A DNA stretch of 32,000 bases from Candidatus Heimdallarchaeota archaeon (GTDB taxonomy: Archaea; Asgardarchaeota; Heimdallarchaeia; Heimdallarchaeales; Heimdallarchaeaceae), in contig DAOVER010000024.1 of the NCBI GenBank assembly GCA_030668875.1, forward strand, positions 12,428 to 44,427, given 5' to 3'. The notes beneath the pieces were generated by a model, which was not told the origin of the DNA, did no database searches, and saw nothing but the letters and a program-made list of their open reading frames with translations. Shown here piece by piece: positions 580 through 23,529 of the stretch. How positions within the stretch are numbered: the first letter of the stretch is position 1; the number at the start of each line of letters is the position of its first letter. The position numbers were made by a program, and so were the translations under genes.

Positions 580-1485
580 ATGGAGAATCTATTTCGGTTA
601 AAGCAAGACACAATACCAATCGTACTTATTGGTCTTCAATATGCTGGAAAAACTACACTTGTAAGCTGGTTAAAGGAGAAACGTTTTACTCGTCCAAAAC
701 CTACTGTTGGAGTAGTAGTTGAAAACATAAAAATAGGTGATATACTTTTCAATATTCACGATATATCAGGGCAAGAAGTTTTTCGAGAAAATATATGGAA
801 GTCCAATATATTAACATCCATGGGAGTTGTTTTTGTTCTTGATTCTTCTGATACTTCAAGGTTAGATGAAGCTTTCACTTGGTATTGGAAGATGGTAAAG
901 GAATGGTTAATTGAATCTTATTCAGATAAAGCAATTCTCTTTCTAGCTAACAAATCTGATCTGAAAACCGCCCTTAGTCTAGATGACATAATTAGCAAGA
1001 TGAAACTGGATGAAATGTCTTCATATCCTAATATTTCTTTCCAATTCTTCAAAACTTCAGTAAGAAATGAAGAAAACATTGAACTTTCTTTTAAATGGTT
1101 TATTTCTAAGATTAAGAGTTTTAGGAAACTTCAATTCAAGAAATTCAAGGCACTCATTGTTTCCGATATTTTTGGAAATCCGCTATATGTTTATGACCCT
1201 GATAAAATTGCACAAGACACCGGAATGTTTGTCGGTTATATTAAAGCTTTGAGTGGGTTTGCAAATGAGATTCTAGGGCATGAGCAATTTAAAGTTCTGA
1301 AAGTTGATACAAACCACTTCTTCATTTCAGAGATTAATGAACACGTTGTGCTCATTGCAGTTGATCAAGAAGAAGCACTTCCTGAAGCGCGTAGACTATC
1401 TATATTGTTACATGAGTATTTAAAAAATAAGAATGTTGATATAACTACAGAATTGAACGTGCTTTTGAGTGACTATGTAACATAG
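580..1485 (+). CDS. Arf/Rag-like small GTPase fused to a C-terminal longin/roadblock-like domain
   Basis: G1 GLQYAGKTT, switch I KPTVG, G3 DISGQ, G4 NKSD, G5 region KTSV. The C-terminal ~110 aa follow a longin-like pattern (LIVSDIFGNPLY...YIKALSGFANEILG...VVLIAVD). Confidence 0.88.
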   Translation: MENLFRLKQDTIPIVLIGLQYAGKTTLVSWLKEKRFTRPKPTVGVVVENIKIGDILFNIHDISGQEVFRENIWKSNILTSMGVVFVLDSSDTSRLDEAFTWYWKMVKEWLIESYSDKAILFLANKSDLKTALSLDDIISKMKLDEMSSYPNISFQFFKTSVRNEENIELSFKWFISKIKSFRKLQFKKFKALIVSDIFGNPLYVYDPDKIAQDTGMFVGYIKALSGFANEILGHEQFKVLKVDTNHFFISEINEHVVLIAVDQEEALPEARRLSILLHEYLKNKNVDITTELNVLLSDYVT

Positions 1486-4652: not shown

Positions 4653-7646
4653 TCACTTCCTTTTCTGATGATCAGGACAGAGTATCACTGTTTCTTCTTT
4701 GAAGAGACTCTTTTTAACTACTTCCTTTCCATGAGTACTACAAACTACTTTTCCGCATTGTGAACATTTCTGAATATGATCATTACAGGAAAAATTTTCG
4801 CAGAATTCGCATTTCTCTGCATAATCAGTAGAAACAACACTTTTGCAGGATGAGCATACAACAGCATGATTTGTACAAATTATCTTTTTAGACAATGAAC
4901 CTTCTATAGTATGATCTTGACATAAAACTTTTCCACAAACACTGCAAACATTAGGAGTGGAAACAAACAACATTTTGGAAGATTTCTGTTCTAGACATAT
5001 TTCACAAAGAAGATGAATTTCAGTGCCTAAAGCTGATTCAGCTATCCCTTTAAGTTGGAGTTTATTGCCTTTCTCATCTGCTATAGATATTTCTGCGAGG
5101 GATACAGGTATATAGATAATTGCGGCATAAATATCTTTAATTTCACTAGCTTTTGGAATGATAAAATCCTTTTTACTTAGAGTAAAATTACTGTCTTGTA
5201 GAAGCTTAACTCTTGGAAATGATTTAAGCTGAGTATCGATTGATTTGATTTTTTCAACCCCTTCCTCAATTTCCTTTATGTGGTTCTTAATTACTTCTGG
5301 ACCAAACTTTATTGTTTCTAGAGCTTTATTGTAATCCCCTACCTCACTGTTGCTCTTAAATTTGTATTTGTCTGTCATCAAAGGTTTTAGAGCAACATAA
5401 ATTCCCTTAGCTTGTTCAATTTGAGCATGGAATTTCTTCACTCTATTTCTCTTACTATCAATTACTTTGAAAATCTCAGTTCTTTCATTTTGCAGTTCTT
5501 CTGCCCAGTGATCAATTTCAGCTTTATGTTCTTTTTCGATATTCACTAATCCTTCCTCAACAGATTTCGTCCATGCTTGCCCATAGAAGGTTTCATCAAC
5601 AAGCAACACATCATGAAAGGATTCCAATATTATTTCAGGAGTTCTTTGAATTTCTAACTTTCTGATATTTGAAGATGTAGCACCATATAAACTACCAAGA
5701 TTTTTGAGAGGAAGAACTGAAATGAGCTCTTCGAAAACCTCCTCAGCTTGAATAGGTATTGATTTCTGCCCCCAGATTTCTTCATCTCCTCCAAACTCTA
5801 TTTTATCAAGTAATGGGAATATTCTTTTGATCGGTAAATCAAGAGTTACTTCTCCCCAACGATCAGCATTTGCATAATTTACTCGAATTCTTCGTTTAGC
5901 TTTGATTCTGAAATCCAGGTACAAGAATGGTATGTAAGCTAGCTCTAGGTTTTGAGTCCCCAGATAACTTAATTTTTTGTTTCCGAAGAATTTTTCCAAT
6001 AGTTCCTTAAATTCAACAGGTTCGTATTTCAGATACTGATCTTTCATTGTTTTTATTATGTTAGAAAGATCAATTAGTTCCACTTCTGGTTCTTTCTCAA
6101 TGACTTCATGGAAATCATCCTTTGTTTCTGTAGGTAAGGTTTCTAGTCCTTCGGGTTGAGTTTCTGATTCTGAATCAGAAGTCTCCGTTTTATCGATTCC
6201 TGCTTGTTTATCTAAGAGACTTGTTCTGCTAGAAAACTTTCTTATTGAAGCTAATTCTTTCTCTAAATCATCTAAACTAAGTTCCTTTGAGATATCCTCT
6301 AAATCCATAGAATCGATATCGTGATCATAAGCGCCGATTTGCTTACATAATGTTGGTGGAGGAAAATCATACATTTTAGCGACGTCTTCATCTGATAGAG
6401 TTTTGTGGACTGAATAGAGTCTGCGAGTGCTTATGTGAACTGGATCAGGGAAGACATCAGGTGAAAGAATGTAAAATTCACCACTTTTGAATTGTTGTAA
6501 CTGGTCAACAATGAACCGTGCTTCTGGTTGAGATTGAAGCATGTTATCAACGATTCTGAGATCTTGAGGAGTAACAAAACGACCAAAGAAGAAAGTACTC
6601 ACTTGTCCAAAAGCCTTGTAATCGACATCACTGATATTTTGCGTTGCAACAAGCATTGACAAACCAAATTTACGTCCTTGTTTGAATAGTAATTGCAACC
6701 ATTGTTTCGTTACAGGATTTTTCGGATGAGGGGGTATGAGTTGTGGTGGTCCTGCTAATTCATCTATATAGAAAATCAATTGAGGATCGGGTGAAGGGTT
6801 AGATCTGATGTATGTATAGAGGCTCTGAGCCAAAGTTGTTATGTAAATTTCTCTTAGTCTTAAATTTGTCAAAGTATTCAGGTAAATTATAGAAATTCTG
6901 ACTTTGTTAGGATCTGTTGGTGTTATTAGAGTCTGAATTGAGAGTTTTGGCCCTAGATTGAATACTAATGAAGGTGCTCCAACATTGATAGATTTTATTC
7001 TTTTAATCAACGAATCTTTTTCTCTTTGTGAAAGCAGTGTTCGTATATTTTCTGGTAAGTAAGCAACTTCTGTTTTTATTAAATCAATCAACATCTCAAA
7101 ATCTGCTATCAGAATATCTTTGAGTAGACACTGTTCAAAAAGCGACACCAAATAAGCTTTAATTGCTCCTCCTCTTTCAGAATTTAGTTTATAACCCAAA
7201 ACATTGGCAATGGTTGTTGCTATTCCATCGATAGCAAGAATCTTTTCTTCTCTGTCTAACTCTTGAGGAGGCATGATTAGTGGGTTTATAGAAAGAGGTA
7301 TTCCTTTCTCTGATGCTGGAGTGAAAACAACAATCTCAACCTTATCTTTATACTGTTCAAAAAACTCTTTAGAGATACCATAAGGCTTCAACTTATCATG
7401 TTCCTCAACAATAACAAGACTAGTTATATCCCCTTGTGGATCAATGATAATTGCTGGGATATTATTCCTTACAGCTTCTTCGATGAGAATCTTACAAACG
7501 ACAGTTTTTCCTGAACCACTCTGACCAAAAACACTGATGTGTTTGCTCAAAGCTTTAACAGGTAAATAAACATCTTCCTGTGTGGAAAATTCTTTTCCAA
7601 TATGCATTGATGGGTTCTGAGCATTTTTCTCTGGCATCTTCTTCAA
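4653..7646 (-). CDS. HerA/FtsK-superfamily (DUF87-like) ATPase with a coiled coil and a C-terminal Cys/His repeat array
   Basis: Walker A GQSGSGKT, IIIDPQGD, Walker B IFYIDE, GRKFG arginine-finger motif, ATQ sensor, then an acidic linker, a coiled coil and a Cys/His-rich tail. The start may be ATG 7637. Confidence 0.88.
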   Translation of the reverse strand: MKKMPEKNAQNPSMHIGKEFSTQEDVYLPVKALSKHISVFGQSGSGKTVVCKILIEEAVRNNIPAIIIDPQGDITSLVIVEEHDKLKPYGISKEFFEQYKDKVEIVVFTPASEKGIPLSINPLIMPPQELDREEKILAIDGIATTIANVLGYKLNSERGGAIKAYLVSLFEQCLLKDILIADFEMLIDLIKTEVAYLPENIRTLLSQREKDSLIKRIKSINVGAPSLVFNLGPKLSIQTLITPTDPNKVRISIIYLNTLTNLRLREIYITTLAQSLYTYIRSNPSPDPQLIFYIDELAGPPQLIPPHPKNPVTKQWLQLLFKQGRKFGLSMLVATQNISDVDYKAFGQVSTFFFGRFVTPQDLRIVDNMLQSQPEARFIVDQLQQFKSGEFYILSPDVFPDPVHISTRRLYSVHKTLSDEDVAKMYDFPPPTLCKQIGAYDHDIDSMDLEDISKELSLDDLEKELASIRKFSSRTSLLDKQAGIDKTETSDSESETQPEGLETLPTETKDDFHEVIEKEPEVELIDLSNIIKTMKDQYLKYEPVEFKELLEKFFGNKKLSYLGTQNLELAYIPFLYLDFRIKAKRRIRVNYANADRWGEVTLDLPIKRIFPLLDKIEFGGDEEIWGQKSIPIQAEEVFEELISVLPLKNLGSLYGATSSNIRKLEIQRTPEIILESFHDVLLVDETFYGQAWTKSVEEGLVNIEKEHKAEIDHWAEELQNERTEIFKVIDSKRNRVKKFHAQIEQAKGIYVALKPLMTDKYKFKSNSEVGDYNKALETIKFGPEVIKNHIKEIEEGVEKIKSIDTQLKSFPRVKLLQDSNFTLSKKDFIIPKASEIKDIYAAIIYIPVSLAEISIADEKGNKLQLKGIAESALGTEIHLLCEICLEQKSSKMLFVSTPNVCSVCGKVLCQDHTIEGSLSKKIICTNHAVVCSSCKSVVSTDYAEKCEFCENFSCNDHIQKCSQCGKVVCSTHGKEVVKKSLFKEETVILCPDHQKRK

Positions 7647-10624: not shown

Positions 10625-11482
10625 ATGAAAATAGATCTACATTGCCATTCAAGTTATTCAGATGGAATATTTTCTCCTCAACAACTGCTAGAAATGGCAG
10701 ATAAGGAGAGACTCACCATTTTTTCTATAACAGATCATGATTCAGTTAAGGGAACCGCAATTGCAAATAGGGAGGCAGTAAACTATTCCTTTTCATACAT
10801 TACAGGAATTGAAATTTCCGCTAGATATAAACAAGAAAAAATAGAAATCCTTGGTTATAATTTTAACGCTGATAATCCAGCTTTTAAACAAAGTTTAGTG
10901 AAACTACAAAATGCTAGAAGGGACAGGATATACAAAATACTTGTAATACTTCAAGAAATTGGGATAAACATATCTTACGATGATGTTATCAAAGAAGTTG
11001 GTGATGCTTCTAGTCCTGGAAGACCACATTTTGCTAGAGCGCTGAAAACAAAAGGGCATGTGAGTTCTGTTAAAGAAGCTTTTAATGAATATCTAGCGGA
11101 GGGACGTCCAGCTTACGTACCTAGACTCACCATAGAACCAAAAGAAGCCATTAATCGAATTAGTAAGGCAAATGGGATAGCTGTTCTTCCCCACCCATTA
11201 TTCGTTGAGAAACATGATATGGGGAGAATGGAAAAATTGTTAGATCTGCTTGTTTCATGGGGGATGAAGGGAATTGAAGTGTATTATAATTATGAATATG
11301 CTTTCTCGAATTTTTCTGCAAAGAGAATTCAAGAAGTTACAAAGTTTCTTTTGGGTTATTGTAAGCAAAATGATTTATTGGTAACTGGTGGAAGTGATTT
11401 CCATGGTGATAAGGGGGTGCTTGGTGGAGTGTATGTGCCAAAAGAATATATTTTACAAATACAATCATTTTTCAATTTGTAG
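10625..11482 (+). CDS. PHP-family phosphoesterase (TrpH/YciV-like)
   Basis: DLHCHSSYSDG, TDHD, GIEIS, GRPHFA, LPHP, GIEV and GGSDFHG motifs. Confidence 0.93.
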   Translation: MKIDLHCHSSYSDGIFSPQQLLEMADKERLTIFSITDHDSVKGTAIANREAVNYSFSYITGIEISARYKQEKIEILGYNFNADNPAFKQSLVKLQNARRDRIYKILVILQEIGINISYDDVIKEVGDASSPGRPHFARALKTKGHVSSVKEAFNEYLAEGRPAYVPRLTIEPKEAINRISKANGIAVLPHPLFVEKHDMGRMEKLLDLLVSWGMKGIEVYYNYEYAFSNFSAKRIQEVTKFLLGYCKQNDLLVTGGSDFHGDKGVLGGVYVPKEYILQIQSFFNL

Positions 11483-12287
11483 AATCGAGAACTTTAATCA
11501 ATAATTCAGGATTGTCAGTAAAGATTCCATCAACTTTCCATGCTAATAAGGAAAGCATAATTTCCTTATCATTTATTGTCCAGGGATGCACTGCAATATT
11601 GTTTCGATGAGCCTTATTTATAGAACTGGCAGTTACAATTTTAATAGAAGAACGTGTCATAGGAACCTGTAATGCACAGTAATCCTTCTTTGAGAACATC
11701 CAAAAATTGGAAACAAAAGTTCGAACCTCTTTTGGATTTGCACTTGTTGGTATTTCAAGATGTTTGCTAATTTCTCTAAATCTAAGAATTTGTTTATTGT
11801 GGAATGAACCAACTAAAACTCTGTGTTCAGCTCCACTTTCCTTTATTGTTTCAAATATCATTGAGGAAGCTTTCTTAAAATCATCTTTGATATCCAGATT
11901 AATTTTCACCTTTGGAAATTTTTCAAATAATGTGTAAAGAGGTAAGATTTGCAACCCTCTATTTCTGAAGGGATAATCCTCTTTCTCTTTATTTAAGTAC
12001 CAATAGCCAAGATCAAATTCTATAAGCTCATCCAGATTAAAGTCTGAGATTCTTCCTTTGCCACTAGTAGTTCTATCTAAAGTTTCATCGTGAAATATAA
12101 CAGGAATGTTATCTTTAGTGATTCTAATATCTGTTTCCAAAACGTCAACGTTTAAGGCATAAGCCTCTTCAAACGCTAATAAGGAGCTTTCTGGTGTGAA
12201 AGCACTTCTTCCACGATGAGCCATTACCAGAGGTCGGTTACCTTTAATGAAAGGAATTTCTGATATCTTCCAAATGGGTTGAAACAT
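11472..12287 (-). CDS. glycerophosphodiester phosphodiesterase (GDPD family)
   Basis: AHRG, ETDIRITKD..PVIFHD, HPWTIN and VDGIFTD motifs; AGGTGA SD at 12292-12297. Confidence 0.93.
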   Translation of the reverse strand: MFQPIWKISEIPFIKGNRPLVMAHRGRSAFTPESSLLAFEEAYALNVDVLETDIRITKDNIPVIFHDETLDRTTSGKGRISDFNLDELIEFDLGYWYLNKEKEDYPFRNRGLQILPLYTLFEKFPKVKINLDIKDDFKKASSMIFETIKESGAEHRVLVGSFHNKQILRFREISKHLEIPTSANPKEVRTFVSNFWMFSKKDYCALQVPMTRSSIKIVTASSINKAHRNNIAVHPWTINDKEIMLSLLAWKVDGIFTDNPELLIKVLDSTN

Positions 12288-15503: not shown

Positions 15504-16910
15504 TTATTCCCTAATTAAGGTATTTGCACCATAGATAAGTTTCTTTGCTGAAGTTATCCCTATACCTCTTATTTTGCTTAATTCTTCAGGTTTAGAGTTT
15601 GCAAGCTGATCAATTGTTTCAACGCCACCATCTTTAAGCAACATAGCAATTTTTTCTCCAACTCCTGATATATCTACTATCCTCAGTTCAGCTTTCTTAT
15701 CTGTAAAAATTTCAGTTGAATCTATTGTTTCTTCTCCATCATCAATAATTTCTATTTCGAATGGTAGAGTTTTTTTTGCTTTAATTGAAGGTTTACTTAC
15801 AGACGGGAGTCTTCGAGTTTTCTTTCTTTTACTTCCTGGAGGTGCAGGGATTTTATCTATCTCAGGATCTATCTTCCTCACAGGATGAATAAAAGCTTCA
15901 GATTCATTTCTGATAAGTTCACTCGGCTTTCGAAGATGCTCAACTTCTTCAAATACAGTTTCCTTATCCTTAAGATAATCTGAAGGTTTTAACAGTCTCT
16001 CACTTTTAGGAGGAGTTAGCTTCTGTTCAACTATTTCTTTTTTCTTGGTTGGTTGTTGAACAAGTTTCTTAGTTTTTGTTTCTGTTTTTACTGTTTCAAT
16101 AGTTTTCTCATGTGAGAGTTCGCTTGGTTTAACTGTTGTATCAGCCACTGCATCGATTGTTTCTCGCTTTTTCAGATACTGTGTGGGTTTGAGTATGTCA
16201 ACAGATTCAACCTTTTTCTCTTTTTTGGGTGAAGGTTTTGTAACAATTGGATCACCCATAATTTTCTTTGGAGCTTTGGGTTTAATTGCTTCTGGCTCAA
16301 AAATTGTATCGCGTTTCTTAATAACATCACTTGGCTTAAGTAGAGTATTTACAAGAGGTGCTTCTGGTTCTTCTTCCTCTTCTTCTACTTTCACTGGAGG
16401 CATTATTGTTACACTAGGAGATATTATCTCGTCTTTTTTAAACAGTTCACTGGGTTTAACAATTTCTGAAGCTGGAGATACAAGACTTTCAACGTCAGTT
16501 GTCATTTCTCTTTTCTTTGAAACAGATTCAAGAGGTTCTTGTACAACTTTGGCTTCTCTAATATCCAAACCAGAAGAGTGCAATGAGGCACCTTTACCCA
16601 AGTTTCTTACTAGTTCAATAAGTTGATAGAAATTGATATTTGTAATACCTACATCTGAAAAATATTCTGCTAACCAGTTTGCAAAACGGTGGACATTTAC
16701 CTCAGATCCTAGCATTTTTTCCCAAAAATTCATTATTATCGTTGTAAGTTGATCAAATGAAGAATATTTATGAGTCTGTGTTATATGTTTACCATCATAT
16801 AAATCTAGAACACCTGTCATGTGCTCACTAAATACATTCTCATTTGGTTTGATGACGACACTATATCTATAACTTCCAATCAAACTTCTACGTTGTGGTC
16901 GCGATGACAT
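15504..16910 (-). CDS. protein with a globular N-domain, a long low-complexity region bearing six KPS(E/D) repeats, and a C-terminal helix-hairpin-helix domain
   Basis: HhH motifs ISGVGEKIA and IRGIGITSA; repeated (L/V)KPS(E/D)xx(K) motif in a Lys/Glu/Pro-rich region. Confidence 0.85.
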   Translation of the reverse strand: MSSRPQRRSLIGSYRYSVVIKPNENVFSEHMTGVLDLYDGKHITQTHKYSSFDQLTTIIMNFWEKMLGSEVNVHRFANWLAEYFSDVGITNINFYQLIELVRNLGKGASLHSSGLDIREAKVVQEPLESVSKKREMTTDVESLVSPASEIVKPSELFKKDEIISPSVTIMPPVKVEEEEEEPEAPLVNTLLKPSDVIKKRDTIFEPEAIKPKAPKKIMGDPIVTKPSPKKEKKVESVDILKPTQYLKKRETIDAVADTTVKPSELSHEKTIETVKTETKTKKLVQQPTKKKEIVEQKLTPPKSERLLKPSDYLKDKETVFEEVEHLRKPSELIRNESEAFIHPVRKIDPEIDKIPAPPGSKRKKTRRLPSVSKPSIKAKKTLPFEIEIIDDGEETIDSTEIFTDKKAELRIVDISGVGEKIAMLLKDGGVETIDQLANSKPEELSKIRGIGITSAKKLIYGANTLIRE

Positions 16911-17043: not shown

Positions 17044-18549
17044 TTAGAACTCAGCTGGTTGTTCTTGCTTGTCAATCTTGTCAGATGACCAAGATGTTCT
17101 CTCTTCTTTGTCGTAACTTACCATAATGTTTTCTCTGACTTTAGAGATACTTTCTTGAACATCAGCTGACAACCTTGTTTTGCGTCCTGGCTTTCCTCTG
17201 AATGGATCTGCGATATAGAAGAATAAGATTGTTTGATATGCTGTATTGAGTGGTTTGAGTAATGCAGACATAGGCAAATAACCAAAGATGAAGAAGAACA
17301 CAGCTACAACAGCTCCAAAGAGAGCCAATACACCAACATCAGTTGAGAGCGAAATACCAAACCAATATCGTCCAACAAAGAAACCTGCTACAACAAATAT
17401 GGCAAAGGTCATCACTGAGAATAATCCTTTAGCAATATTGACACCAGTTTTTCCTATGATGATATCTGCACCAGAATCTAATGCTAAATCAGAGGATCTA
17501 GCAATGCTTCGAATGAAGCCTTGTTTCTCTACAACTATGATTGTTAAAGTGTAGTAGTTCAGGAATTTAATAATCTTGAACAACCATTTGAAGAGCAGTA
17601 CGAATATGATAAATACCCAGTAAAGCACCTTTTTTATGATAGTAAAAGCTTTATAGAATTTTGAAGTTTCTTTGATCTTCTTCGCTCCAAAATATTGAAC
17701 TATTTTTACAATCCAATCAAAGAATGCCATGAACATTCCAAACATTACTATGCTTCCTTTTACTTTCCAAACTTCCTTCATAGCATAACGAATACTTGCT
17801 TCTTTGTAATTATTCCATCTTTTGAACATGCAAATATTGATAGCATCAAGGAAGTACATTGTTGTCCAGTAAATTGCCAGATACACATAAATAACAAGGA
17901 ATAACACTAACCATTGAACCCATGTTTCTTGATCACTTAACCAGGATAGGTTAATGACCCACACACTTGCTGCAGCTCCAAGAATGAATATTATAATTGA
18001 TGCAACAGCAAAAATCAGAATAGGAATCAACGTACGTTTATTTTCATTTACTGCTTCACAGCTTGTTTCGAATATTTTAGCTCCAAGAACTATTCTTCTT
18101 GAAACTAGAAGTATCACTACTATAAGCATAGCAGCAAGAGCTACTACGCCAATCCCTATCCAGATCGGTTTTAAGCCTATTATACAGTATATACCTCCAC
18201 CTAAGATTACTAGAGGAATTCCAAATACAACTACACTAACAAATTCAGCACCAACAAAACTCATAATCCATATTTCTAGATATGCTAGCAAAATTCCAAT
18301 TAGGAACAAAGCAGCGACACCACCGATTATCCAGTATTTCATTGCTTCTAAATCTGGAACTAGAACTGGAACTGTTGAGATATCTATATCAGCTATGAAA
18401 GCAATTGCATAATCTAAAAAACCAATACCCTCACTGGCAAAGTTTGTGATAGCATAAATCCCTAAGGCTAATGCTGCAAAAGCTAAAAGAGACCATAAGT
18501 AAAAGAATAATCCAAAATCTCTTACTCTTTTTTCTTCTTGTTCAGTCAT
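17044..18549 (-). CDS. choline transporter-like (CTL/SLC44/Pns1 family) multi-pass membrane protein
   Basis: About 10 TM. SRRIVLGAKIFETSCEAV, YWTTMYF...ICMFKRW, GSIVMFGMF and KIIKFLNYYTLTIIVVEKQGFIRSIARSSDL parallel conserved CTL segments (RIxxAxxxxxxAxxAV; WY; GSIAFGSL; LKFLNRNAYIxxAIxGxxFxxSAxxAxxL). Confidence 0.7.
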   Translation of the reverse strand: MTEQEEKRVRDFGLFFYLWSLLAFAALALGIYAITNFASEGIGFLDYAIAFIADIDISTVPVLVPDLEAMKYWIIGGVAALFLIGILLAYLEIWIMSFVGAEFVSVVVFGIPLVILGGGIYCIIGLKPIWIGIGVVALAAMLIVVILLVSRRIVLGAKIFETSCEAVNENKRTLIPILIFAVASIIIFILGAAASVWVINLSWLSDQETWVQWLVLFLVIYVYLAIYWTTMYFLDAINICMFKRWNNYKEASIRYAMKEVWKVKGSIVMFGMFMAFFDWIVKIVQYFGAKKIKETSKFYKAFTIIKKVLYWVFIIFVLLFKWLFKIIKFLNYYTLTIIVVEKQGFIRSIARSSDLALDSGADIIIGKTGVNIAKGLFSVMTFAIFVVAGFFVGRYWFGISLSTDVGVLALFGAVVAVFFFIFGYLPMSALLKPLNTAYQTILFFYIADPFRGKPGRKTRLSADVQESISKVRENIMVSYDKEERTSWSSDKIDKQEQPAEF

Positions 18550-20744: not shown

Positions 20745-21515
20745 TTATACAGGAGATATTTCTATGTTGAGTATCTCTAAAATACTCACCATTTCTTTTA
20801 CATCTTCAACTGTTTTTACTCTCATTGAACTCTTAAACATACTAGAATTTAACTCTGATGCTACTTTGTAGATATTCCTTCTTCTCCATACATCCATTGA
20901 AGGATTATATAGGAGTATATACATTACATTTTTGTGCAAATCACAAAGAAGGTATGTATCAGCATATTCTAATCTCTTACCAATCATTTCTTTCAAAGAA
21001 TTATCTTGATTAACTCCAAAAATTCTGGGGATTTTTCCAGAGAACATATCAACCATTTTTAAGAAAACCTGTTTAATGGACGAAGGATTAATATCTGCTT
21101 CTGCGTTAAGACTTCTCGCTATTAGGGTGAAATAGGGTATAATGAGACCATAACTATCTAAAACTTCTCGTACAGCTGAGCCTTCAAACAGGAAATATGC
21201 AACACATAATCTGAATCCTGCTTGCTCTATTCTCACATCAGTTGATGAGGTTATTTCTGTTTCAAAAGGAATAGCTATAGCTTTCAAACTTTCATTATCT
21301 GGGACAGGGATTGGACCAAGCATTTTTGGTTTTTGGCTTCCATCCAATCTACCGATTGAAGACTTATCCATTTCAACAAGGGTCATACCTGTCATAACTA
21401 GTGTTAGAGCTGTATTTTCTTCTAATGTAGAATTATTGAACAATATTTCTGGTCCATAATCTTTGAATATACTGAACACCAATGTTGGTTCTTTGGAAAT
21501 GTTTGGATTTATCAT
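20745..21515 (-). CDS. uDENN/longin-like N-domain fused to a gelsolin-like C-domain (putative)
   Basis: LVFSIFKDYGPEILF at the N-terminus; PRIFGV...DTYLLCD...MYILL...long helix...RVKTVED at the C-terminus. AGGAG SD at 21523-21527 supports ATG 21515 over 21536. Confidence 0.6.
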   Translation of the reverse strand: MINPNISKEPTLVFSIFKDYGPEILFNNSTLEENTALTLVMTGMTLVEMDKSSIGRLDGSQKPKMLGPIPVPDNESLKAIAIPFETEITSSTDVRIEQAGFRLCVAYFLFEGSAVREVLDSYGLIIPYFTLIARSLNAEADINPSSIKQVFLKMVDMFSGKIPRIFGVNQDNSLKEMIGKRLEYADTYLLCDLHKNVMYILLYNPSMDVWRRRNIYKVASELNSSMFKSSMRVKTVEDVKEMVSILEILNIEISPV

Positions 21516-21528
21516 TATTTTTCTCCTT

Positions 21529-22518
21529 TTAATCATCCTTTATAGGTTCTTGATCTAAAGCAATTGCAATTTCAGGAATTTTGCTTAAGATTTCGTATTT
21601 AACTTGTTTTGGCATTTCTTTAGTCGGATCTCTATTCCGTTCTTCAATAAATGCTTGAAGGATTTCCTCGGCAAGAGATTGTGCTTTAGACTCACTATCA
21701 TCTCTACCAACGAATAATACTATACTCCATCCACTTACTTTTCGAATAATCATCTTCATAGCGCCTAGTTTTACAACATCCATCACAGATTCGCTTTCAA
21801 AGATAGTTGTAGCCATGATATTTAGTGCACTAATCAATCCGCCTAGCAATGTACTATCGTGCTCCTCAATGGAAGCATCAAAGGTATAGTCAAATGCGGG
21901 CACGCCTCCCTCTTGAAGAATAATAACTCTCCTTGGAGTTACATCTTCACGTAATGGTGTCCTCCCTGTCATTCTTGAAATAATCCAATCAAAAGCGGTA
22001 TAGAAAGTTTCTCCTGTTTTGGCACTGATTGGATAAATTGAAACAGAACGATTTATATCGTCCATAATTATTTGAAATGCTGGATCTTGAAGTAAATCTA
22101 CAAAAGGAACAGCATTTGGTTTGTCTATCTTGTTAGCAAGGAAAAGAATTGATGTCTTTTGAGGGATTCTATCAAGTAAGGTAAAAATATATTCAAAAGA
22201 AGCTTCAATATGTCTATTTGACTGAGTATCTATCACGAATACTACTCCATTAATCTCACCAAGAATATCTTGGAAGTAAGGACTTTCGCGAGCAGTTTCT
22301 TCACCTGCTTCAACAACTGAAAGAATGGTTGTACCATACTTTACATTAATGAAACAAGTAGATTGTTCAGGTTGTCCCTCAGCAATAGTTCCAAACATTA
22401 AACGATTAAGAACAGTAGACTTTCCTGAACCTTCTAGACCAAGAATAACTATTTGAGGGATTTTTCTATCCTTCTCAGACATCATCTTATCTCGTATAAA
22501 TGAGAGATAGTTGCTCAA
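21529..22518 (-). CDS. Arf/Rag-like GTPase with degenerate switch motifs, fused to a longin-like domain
   Basis: G1 GLEGSGKST, G4 NKID and G5 SAK are intact; G3 reads EAGEE; longin-like VIILQEGGVP...LLGGLISALNIMA. TTG start with a GGAGG SD at 22529-22533. Confidence 0.85.
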   Translation of the reverse strand: MSNYLSFIRDKMMSEKDRKIPQIVILGLEGSGKSTVLNRLMFGTIAEGQPEQSTCFINVKYGTTILSVVEAGEETARESPYFQDILGEINGVVFVIDTQSNRHIEASFEYIFTLLDRIPQKTSILFLANKIDKPNAVPFVDLLQDPAFQIIMDDINRSVSIYPISAKTGETFYTAFDWIISRMTGRTPLREDVTPRRVIILQEGGVPAFDYTFDASIEEHDSTLLGGLISALNIMATTIFESESVMDVVKLGAMKMIIRKVSGWSIVLFVGRDDSESKAQSLAEEILQAFIEERNRDPTKEMPKQVKYEILSKIPEIAIALDQEPIKDD

Positions 22519-23529
22519 TTATCGTCTTCCTCCCTCTACTTCAAGTGGGAACTTACTTTCGAAGACTTCTCCTAAGTTTCTACTTACTTCAGCAGGGTTC
22601 CTACTGAAATTCTCTAAAATTCGCAGTTGAATCTGTTGAGCTCTTGTAACTGGATCAATTGGGTCAATCATTACGGAAAGACAGTATGCTCCACGTTTAA
22701 CATGACTAACATGTTTTTTATATAAATTCTCTAATTTTATTGATTGAATGCTTTCCTTAGTTTCTACTGCGAACATTTTAGTTAATTCTTTTAATTTCTT
22801 AAAATCATTTGCTACAGTAGCTTGCTCATTGGGGTTACCAAAGATGGCTTCAGATATAATGGTACCTGAGATATCTGTCAATACAGCAGCACCTATCTTA
22901 ACTTTCCATTGCTGAGCACCGCAGAGCACATCAACTACCCAGTCCCACGCTTCATAGACACCTTGTCCTGTCAAAGCTGAAACTTTCTTAATATTGAATG
23001 GTCTGAGATTTCTTAGAAATTTATCTAATTCAAAATGTTCATTGATTTCAGATAATTCTTTAGAATTGGGTAAATCACTTTTGTTTGCTAAAAATAATAC
23101 AGGAGCATTTTGTTTTGCAAAGTTAATATAATGCCAAAATGTTTGTTTGGATTCGTCAAATCTTACATGATCAGCTGAATCTACCAAATATATCACAGCA
23201 TCAGCTCGTTCAATAAATTTTTTCCATAAACTCAATCTAAAAGGTTGATGACCTCCTAGATCAAAGCAAGTGAAGTTTAAATCTCGATATTGATAGTTTT
23301 CTAAATTAATTCCATAAGTGGGTCTAACAACGATATCCTCTTGTTTTAACAGTTTTTTAACTAGCGAGGTTTTTCCAGCTCTTTCTAACCCTAATAACGC
23401 TACACTAAATTTGTTTCTCCCAACCACTGACTCTTGTTGAGCTGTTGTATCTGTCCTAGTTTTCTTTTCTTGCTTCTCTCGCTTAGCTTTTTCCTGCATT
23501 ATACGTTTTCGAAATTCATAGAAAGACAT
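22519..23529 (-). CDS. Arf/Sar1-like small GTPase fused to a longin/roadblock-like domain
   Basis: G1 GLERAGKTS, switch I RPTYG, G3 DLGGH, VIYLVDSAD, G4 NKSD, G5 VSAL, GQGVYEAWDW; AGGTGA SD at 23534-23539. Confidence 0.9.
   Translation of the reverse strand: MSFYEFRKRIMQEKAKREKQEKKTRTDTTAQQESVVGRNKFSVALLGLERAGKTSLVKKLLKQEDIVVRPTYGINLENYQYRDLNFTCFDLGGHQPFRLSLWKKFIERADAVIYLVDSADHVRFDESKQTFWHYINFAKQNAPVLFLANKSDLPNSKELSEINEHFELDKFLRNLRPFNIKKVSALTGQGVYEAWDWVVDVLCGAQQWKVKIGAAVLTDISGTIISEAIFGNPNEQATVANDFKKLKELTKMFAVETKESIQSIKLENLYKKHVSHVKRGAYCLSVMIDPIDPVTRAQQIQLRILENFSRNPAEVSRNLGEVFESKFPLEVEGGRR

Follow-up and report, generated by a model that had tools for sequence, protein, structure and literature searches.

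A compact CTL/SLC44-family membrane protein in a Heimdallarchaeaceae archaeon and its possible role in lipid head-group binding

The gene at positions 17044-18549 (minus strand) of a 32,000-nucleotide stretch of DNA from Candidatus Heimdallarchaeota archaeon (assembly GCA_030668875.1, contig DAOVER010000024.1, positions 12,428 to 44,427), hereafter the window, encodes a membrane protein, P0001, which is almost certainly a true member of the CTL/SLC44/Pns1 (PF04515) family. SLC44/CTL (choline transporter-like) proteins are spread throughout the eukaryotes; they have been connected with lipid homeostasis, trafficking, autophagy and disease, and their molecular function is disputed. The initial annotation of the window had read this gene as a CTL/SLC44 homologue in an archaeon, and Pfam, profile and fold matches all support that reading. 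As for its role, we tentatively favour, by analogy with recent work on human CTL1, a membrane protein that would bind lipid head groups without transporting a solute, a proposal that we place somewhat short of an even chance. Taken as a whole, the combination of CTL membership with such a lipid-binding mechanism is, in our judgement, evenly balanced between being right and being wrong.

The gene is an uninterrupted open reading frame (ORF) of 501 aa that begins with ATG and ends with a stop codon at 17044-17046. The N-terminus of the protein (KVRDFG...) is kept among homologues and therefore supports the assigned start codon. When P0001 was searched against Pfam with hmmscan, the PF04515 (Choline_transpo) profile was matched at E 2.8e-13 and 50.2 bits, above the gathering cut-off of 26.9. 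The match forms a single stretch over residues 135-449 and profile positions 3-325 of 326, which means that the conserved CTL blocks are present and ordered from end to end; the initial annotation had noted several of them in their correct order, and coincidence is far from explaining such agreement. No Pfam family besides PF04515 was found for P0001 below E 0.1, and an NCBIfam search gave no match. Against PDB sequences, neither P0001 alone nor a Heimdallarchaeaceae-only profile (A1) recovered a CTL match, and a broader Asgard profile was needed: the profile of 75 Asgard sequences (A3) reached yeast PNS1 at E 4e-23 and human CTL1 at E 5e-10, without a match to any other family in the PDB. Three subgroup profiles were compared in the same way; that of Heimdallarchaeia reached PNS1 with the highest score (E 2.6e-13, 52.4 bits), that of families f11, f24 and f25 did so at 43 bits, and that of f31, f12 and f15 did not reach it. 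As far as profile comparison can tell, the similarity to PNS1 and CTL1 expected of a family member is thus found at the level of the family, through broad Asgard profiles.

The predicted fold points in the same direction. A first AlphaFold model, made from 19 close homologues, had a mean predicted local distance difference test score (pLDDT) of 56 and was discarded; a second model, made from 75 sequences from across the Asgard family, had a pLDDT of 88.2 and a predicted template modelling score of 0.87. A Foldseek comparison of the kind that the initial annotation had proposed, run with this model against the PDB, returned three matches at E<=1e-3, yeast PNS1 (9f63, 1.7e-9) and human CTL1 (9qu3, 7wwb), and besides these CTL-family structures there was none below 0.06. 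A hydropathy scan places ten transmembrane (TM) segments, M1 to M10, in P0001, with 26 lysines and arginines predicted inside and 5 outside, a bias consistent with the N-in/C-in topology of eukaryotic CTLs. The ten TM segments and three amphipathic connecting helices (AH1-AH3) that surround a pseudo-threefold centre in the CTL fold (PMC13160678) are all present in the predicted structure.

Two parts can be told apart within this fold. Helices M1-M4 (residues 13-149; 18103-18513, minus strand), placed by hydropathy and by the helices of the model, have a 27-residue acidic loop between M1 and M2 and no ectodomain. The core M5-M10 (residues 154-453; 17191-18090, minus strand) consists of three helical hairpins joined by the cytoplasmic helices AH1-AH3, and is common to eukaryotic CTLs, bacterial DUF6159 proteins and, by fold, CysZ. 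The structural alignment to PNS1 covers model residues 9-477, while the matches to DUF6159 and CysZ start only at about residue 154, and it is the M1-M4 part that sets the CTL architecture apart from the six-helix DUF6159/CysZ core. The charged C-terminal tail (residues 450-501; 17047-17202, minus strand) holds 11 lysines and arginines and 11 aspartates and glutamates and is predicted to be cytoplasmic; pLDDT falls to 39-58 over the last 30 residues of the protein.

Among the eukaryotic structures, S. cerevisiae Pns1 (PDB 9F63) is of the same compact type as P0001, at an identity of about 15%, but has a longer N-terminal tail, so that the alignment begins near its residue 77-81. Human CTL1/SLC44A1 (PDB 7WWB, 9QU3), which is 11-13% identical to P0001, differs in that its M1 and M2 are separated by an extracellular domain some 150 residues long (residues 63-213), where P0001 has its short loop; the large M1-M2 domain typical of animal CTL1-5 is thus absent here. 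This short linker is no bar to membership, since the PNS1 alignment shows a similar one, and, judging from the model, P0001 is a compact protein that lacks an ectodomain and resembles yeast Pns1 most closely. The lipid modifications and glycosylation of eukaryotic CTL1-type proteins are not expected in P0001.

Sequence conservation among the Asgard proteins falls on the segments that line the pocket of CTL1, whose residues we took from PMC13160678. The M8 motif KFLNYYTL (K328-L335; 17545-17568, minus strand) lies opposite N494-Y495-L-N497-Q498 in the pocket of CTL1 and opposite the PNS1 sequence 'EYFNH' in the alignment, and in the M10 motif PLNTAYQTIL (P433-L442; 17224-17253, minus strand) N435 and T436 are aligned with the CTL1 pocket residues E591 and M592. 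The M8 motif is invariant inside the Heimdall family, and over 75 Asgard sequences F329 is conserved in 70%, T334 in 76% and L335 in 80%; the corresponding values in M10 are 86% for T440, 78% for L442 and 70% for P433. Over the same sequences S352 is invariant, and W245, G389, G393, P426, T440 and D448 are conserved at 85-96%. The best-conserved motifs (FLNYYTLP on M8, the AH3 segment with S352, G369 on M9, and P433 to T440 on M10) all lie on CTL1 pocket-lining segments. Residue by residue, the A3 alignment pairs CTL1 K491, N494, Y495, N497 and Q498 with K325, K328, F329, N331 and Y332 of P0001, and N533 and D537 with K367 and N371. The pocket tyrosine on M8 (CTL1 Y495, PNS1 Y394), the only pocket residue common to both eukaryotic proteins, is a phenylalanine in P0001 (F329), and N331, two positions further on, is retained opposite CTL1 N497. 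The pocket positions of P0001 are polar, with identities that differ from those of both eukaryotic structures, as these differ from each other.

We next consider how the family is distributed. The PF04515 genome searches covered 399 Asgard genomes, and other phyla were sampled through genomes picked by a universal 16S motif. PF04515 was found in 136 of the 399 Asgard genomes at E<=1e-3 and over the cut-off in 99, with a spread over 38 of 85 genera and 27 of the 29 genomes of the GTDB family to which the window belongs. In f20, the Asgard family with the most genomes in the collection, none of the 135 gave a match; the gene is missing or too diverged in this major lineage, and its Asgard distribution is patchy. 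No genome passed the cut-off among 251 Halobacteriota, 301 Bacillota and 251 Pseudomonadota (0/803) or among 14 control genomes, and the three phyla yielded a few partial matches near 19 bits. A profile made from Heimdall sequences only, searched against 1.84 billion representative proteins, recovered just 68 representative clusters. All named clusters among them are Asgard (Heimdall, Hod, Thor, Hermod, Prometh, Njord), and the unnamed clades are tied to Asgard genomes by BLAST or genome search; a homologue search with a 47-sequence alignment returned Heimdall proteins only. Among the prokaryotes sampled, a set that leaves out Thermoproteota and many other phyla, the ten-helix CTL form is therefore found in Asgard archaea only. 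The proposal of a candidate eukaryotic-signature protein gains from the occurrence of full-length members in 99/399 Asgard genomes against 0/803 in three phyla and 0/14 controls. The highest PNS1 score, obtained with the Heimdallarchaeia profile, is no more than a lead as to where eukaryotic sequences might fall relative to those of Asgard archaea. The initial annotation had also stated that its reading would suffer if the nearest homologues were widespread in bacteria: for the full-length protein this is not the case, none being over the cut-off in the samples, whereas the six-helix core does occur in bacteria.

This distribution also bears on the origin of the gene. It might be suspected that the gene was acquired recently from a eukaryote, or that its contig is a contaminant, given that the family is otherwise eukaryotic and that the source genome, a Heimdallarchaeaceae metagenome-assembled genome of 3.23 Mb in 99 contigs (estimated 92% complete), has an estimated contamination of 4.4%. 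However, the gene lies on a 44-kb contig amid archaeal and Asgard-type genes, with a uniform GC content of 30-35% across the whole window, and it is present in a single copy in the source genome (PF04515 genome search, 51.8 bits). All of its nearest homologues, which are 48-92% identical and include one from strain AB_125, carry the label Heimdallarchaeaceae or Heimdallarchaeota, and the family genomes that carry it include single-contig ones and share a conserved neighbour. Sequences of different Asgard lineages are 15-29% identical to P0001 and group by taxonomy, while P0001 shares only 11-15% with PNS1 and CTL1. A tree built from 76 sequences gives each GTDB family sampled more than once, except f5, a supported clade of its own; deeper nodes are weak. 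Within Asgard lineages this is a single-copy gene that tracks taxonomy, and its presence in 27/29 genomes together with the taxonomic grouping in the tree effectively refutes recent eukaryotic transfer or contamination, to which we assign a practically negligible probability.

Some family members depart from the common form. The families f3 and f4, sisters of Heimdallarchaeaceae, have a divergent CTL-like paralogue in addition to the main copy (L063-L066; genomes G043, G041, G042 and G050), 35-41% identical to P0061 and about 23% to P0001; this second copy accounts for one of the unnamed clades among the 68 clusters. The CTL-like proteins recorded as L058:226-2244 (G279, f21) and as P0050 and P0109 (709 and 718 aa) carry a C-terminal extension of about 200 residues with four extra hydrophobic segments, in which Pfam finds no match.

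The core of the protein has wider relatives than the ten-helix form. Forty-one of 47 diverse Asgard members match PF04515, and the same C-terminal residues match DUF6159 (PF19656) in 13, GPDPase_memb (PF10110) in 13 and DUF7544 in 6 of the 47, the PF10110 matches being sub-threshold in every case inspected. A 277-aa cyanobacterial DUF6159 protein scored 90.7 bits against the Asgard profile at positions 155-436 and was aligned by hhalign at 98.8% over 251 columns, and several Asgard subgroups each detect it independently. DUF6159 itself is scarce in the samples (1/151 Cyanobacteriota, 0/14 control genomes), and at E<=10 there was no PF19656 match in P0001, nor any match in its source genome, so that P0001 is not itself a DUF6159 member. 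The DUF6159 proteins, small six-helix membrane proteins of bacteria and archaea, are homologous to the CTL core M5-M10 and, unlike P0001, are without M1-M4. Judged by homology through the Asgard profile, the three-hairpin core is older and part of a wider prokaryotic superfamily; its combination with M1-M4 is found, among the groups tested, only in Asgard archaea and eukaryotes.

Two further readings of the gene start from this core. CysZ (PDB 3TX3), which has the EI24/CysZ fold and is a putative sulfate permease in bacteria, is a fold-level relative of M5-M10. P0001 could accordingly be pictured as conducting some other small polar solute, for instance an inorganic anion, through the CysZ-like six-helix core, either as a channel or as a permease; we give this a low probability. 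The other concerns GPDPase_memb, the membrane part of GDPD enzymes, of which S. pneumoniae WhyD is one; Asgard family members show local similarity to it around M8-AH3. P0001 might be the membrane partner of the GDPD encoded in the window at 11472-12287, in the manner of the GPDPase_memb-GDPD fusions of Bacillota (WhyD type): the sub-threshold PF10110 matches in 13/47 Asgard members, the reported remote similarity of the WhyD TM domain to PF04515 (PMC9208761) and the position of the GDPD gene, on the same strand 4.7 kb downstream, all fit such a partnership. Yet the hhalign comparison with true Bacillota GPDPase_memb proteins gave a probability of 70% (E 4e-5) over 55 columns, and P0001 itself has no PF10110 match. 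These Bacillota proteins, at 596-628 aa, have the length expected for a GDPD-domain fusion, and no GDPD domain was found in the Asgard CTL-like members examined. In addition, four unrelated genes lie between the two genes, the two are found within 7 kb of each other in same-genus genomes only, and the window GDPD has neither a signal peptide nor a TM segment. We consider the partnership very improbable. Membership in GPDPase_memb was rejected, the similarity being local and the PF10110 match missing, and so was a functional tie to the GDPD, which is not a conserved neighbour; the suggestion in the initial annotation that this enzyme could supply choline or ethanolamine head groups is accordingly not supported. 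The source genome also holds two weak partial GPDPase_memb-like matches of 21-22 bits (G000:C38:68721-68939, L021, and G000:C94:35916-36206, L022), which may be distant members of the six-helix superfamily.

What P0001 does in the membrane has to be weighed against what is reported for its eukaryotic relatives. Choline uptake is unlikely, because recent work finds no choline transport by CTL1: two recent studies detected none by CTL1 or PNS1 in oocytes, cells or proteoliposomes (PMC13160678; bioRxiv 10.64898/2026.10.02.755950). In both, the protein is described as bowl-shaped and open to the outside, its polar pocket lying at the pseudo-threefold centre, and one of the two CTL1 studies reports bound phosphatidylethanolamine, phosphatidylserine and phosphatidylinositol as well as phosphatidic acid, together with membrane thinning in simulations (PMC13160678; bioRxiv 10.64898/2026.10.02.755950). 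By analogy, P0001, like human CTL1 in this structural work, is probably no choline importer, and would instead bind the head groups of polar lipids in a polar cavity that M8, M9 and M10 form and that opens outwards. The archaeon probably makes serine- and ethanolamine-type head groups, and its genome encodes a phosphatidylserine decarboxylase (93 bits); the conical shape of the protein may influence local membrane organisation.

The name of the Pfam family and older work on CTL1, in which that protein was originally described in this way, convey another reading: P0001 would be a secondary transporter of choline, of ethanolamine or of some similar small organic cation, supplying head-group precursors or osmolytes. 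The polar, conserved central cavity would suit it, but the activity is disputed even for CTL1 and PNS1. A Choline_kinase match in the source genome (277-aa ORF G000:C29:83517-84092, L067) could be added in its favour, but at 36.3 bits it is just above the cut-off, and the same profile also matches 7 of the 14 control genomes, which marks it as a weak, non-specific kinase-fold match. Neither EutB nor BCCT was found in the source genome, no uptake-related neighbour of the CTL-like gene is conserved, and the two recent studies, in which CTL1 and PNS1 did not transport choline, speak against this reading. We therefore regard a cation transporter as unlikely.

Several points weigh against the lipid-binding proposal as well. 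The lipid-binding model of CTL1 is recent and partly based on simulations, a preprint being among its sources; the ether lipids of archaea are unlike the lipids seen bound to CTL1. Pocket residues differ in identity among P0001, PNS1 and CTL1, and the sole tyrosine shared by the latter two is replaced by phenylalanine here. The description of CysZ, a fold relative, as a sulfate permease means that the scaffold may lend itself to transport. The structure of P0001 is a predicted one, whose first version, from a shallow alignment, was poor (pLDDT 56), and the absence of the family outside Asgard archaea is drawn from samples without Thermoproteota. Finally, no conserved operon partner indicates lipid metabolism.

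The neighbourhood of the gene is conserved within lineages. In Heimdallarchaeaceae, a gene for a disordered HhH scaffold (window 15504-16910, minus strand) lies directly downstream of the CTL-like gene at 10 of 10 loci in four genera, and a PfkB kinase gene lies upstream in divergent orientation. The HhH scaffold gene is not beside the CTL-like gene in other Asgard families, where f31 has a universal stress protein as neighbour and ABC ATPases occur sporadically. A neighbour conserved across the phylum was looked for and none was found, synteny being lineage-specific.

Elsewhere in the 32-kb window there are three genes for Arf-family small GTPases, at 580-1485 (plus strand), 21529-22518 (minus strand) and 22519-23529 (minus strand), two of which are adjacent to each other and lie beside an ORF at 20745-21536 without a Pfam match. 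A 997-aa protein encoded at 4653-7646 (minus strand) has an N-terminal HerA/DUF87 and TrwB-like ATPase domain, and the window also encodes a pyroglutamyl peptidase.

In family f19 a CTL domain occurs as part of a much larger protein. The product of L056:2122-8241 (G135), of about 2040 aa, combines a nine-TM anchor with an Adaptin_N/HEAT solenoid some 1100 residues long, which matches PF01602 at 51 bits (cut-off 37), and ends in a CTL domain at residues 1537-2014. The fusion is present in two genomes of one genus at 79% identity, the second being a complete genome (G133:C1:3180968-3187078), and in sister genera the two parts are separate, unlinked genes. This arrangement suggests that solenoid and CTL proteins cooperate on the cytoplasmic side, and suggests for the latter a scaffolding role there and not solute uptake.

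These observations allow an evolutionary scenario, which we hold to be rather improbable. The ten-helix CTL would have arisen in Asgard archaea by the addition of four helices to an older DUF6159-type core and would have been inherited by eukaryotes, its ancestral role being the recognition of lipid head groups and the local shaping of membranes together with cytoplasmic alpha-solenoid scaffolds; the f19 CTL-adaptin/HEAT fusion hints at such a partnership. Should this scenario be true, the protein would add a so far uncatalogued membrane component to the toolkit of trafficking and remodelling that preceded eukaryotes, and SLC44 function could be studied on it as a tractable prokaryotic model.

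The link of these archaeal proteins to the CTL family is not new, as precomputed Pfam annotation labels them PF04515. A preprint of October 2026 lists an Asgard CTL cluster, and according to a recent preprint the CTL family is absent from published catalogues of eukaryotic-signature proteins. In the literature on Asgard 'choline transporter-like', PF04515, DUF6159 or PF10110 we found no dedicated study, and the main text of a 2021 census of Asgard transporters gave no match for 'CTL' or TC 2.A.92. The gain from this window is thus modest, one more member, from Heimdallarchaeaceae, of a family that had already been noticed. P0001 nevertheless offers a simpler protein for structural and biochemical work on the CTL fold. 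Archaeal and eukaryotic lipids have common head groups and different backbones, so that setting one against the other could reveal if head groups are what the family recognises. The Asgard CTL is also a candidate for the list of membrane proteins that passed from Asgard archaea to eukaryotes.
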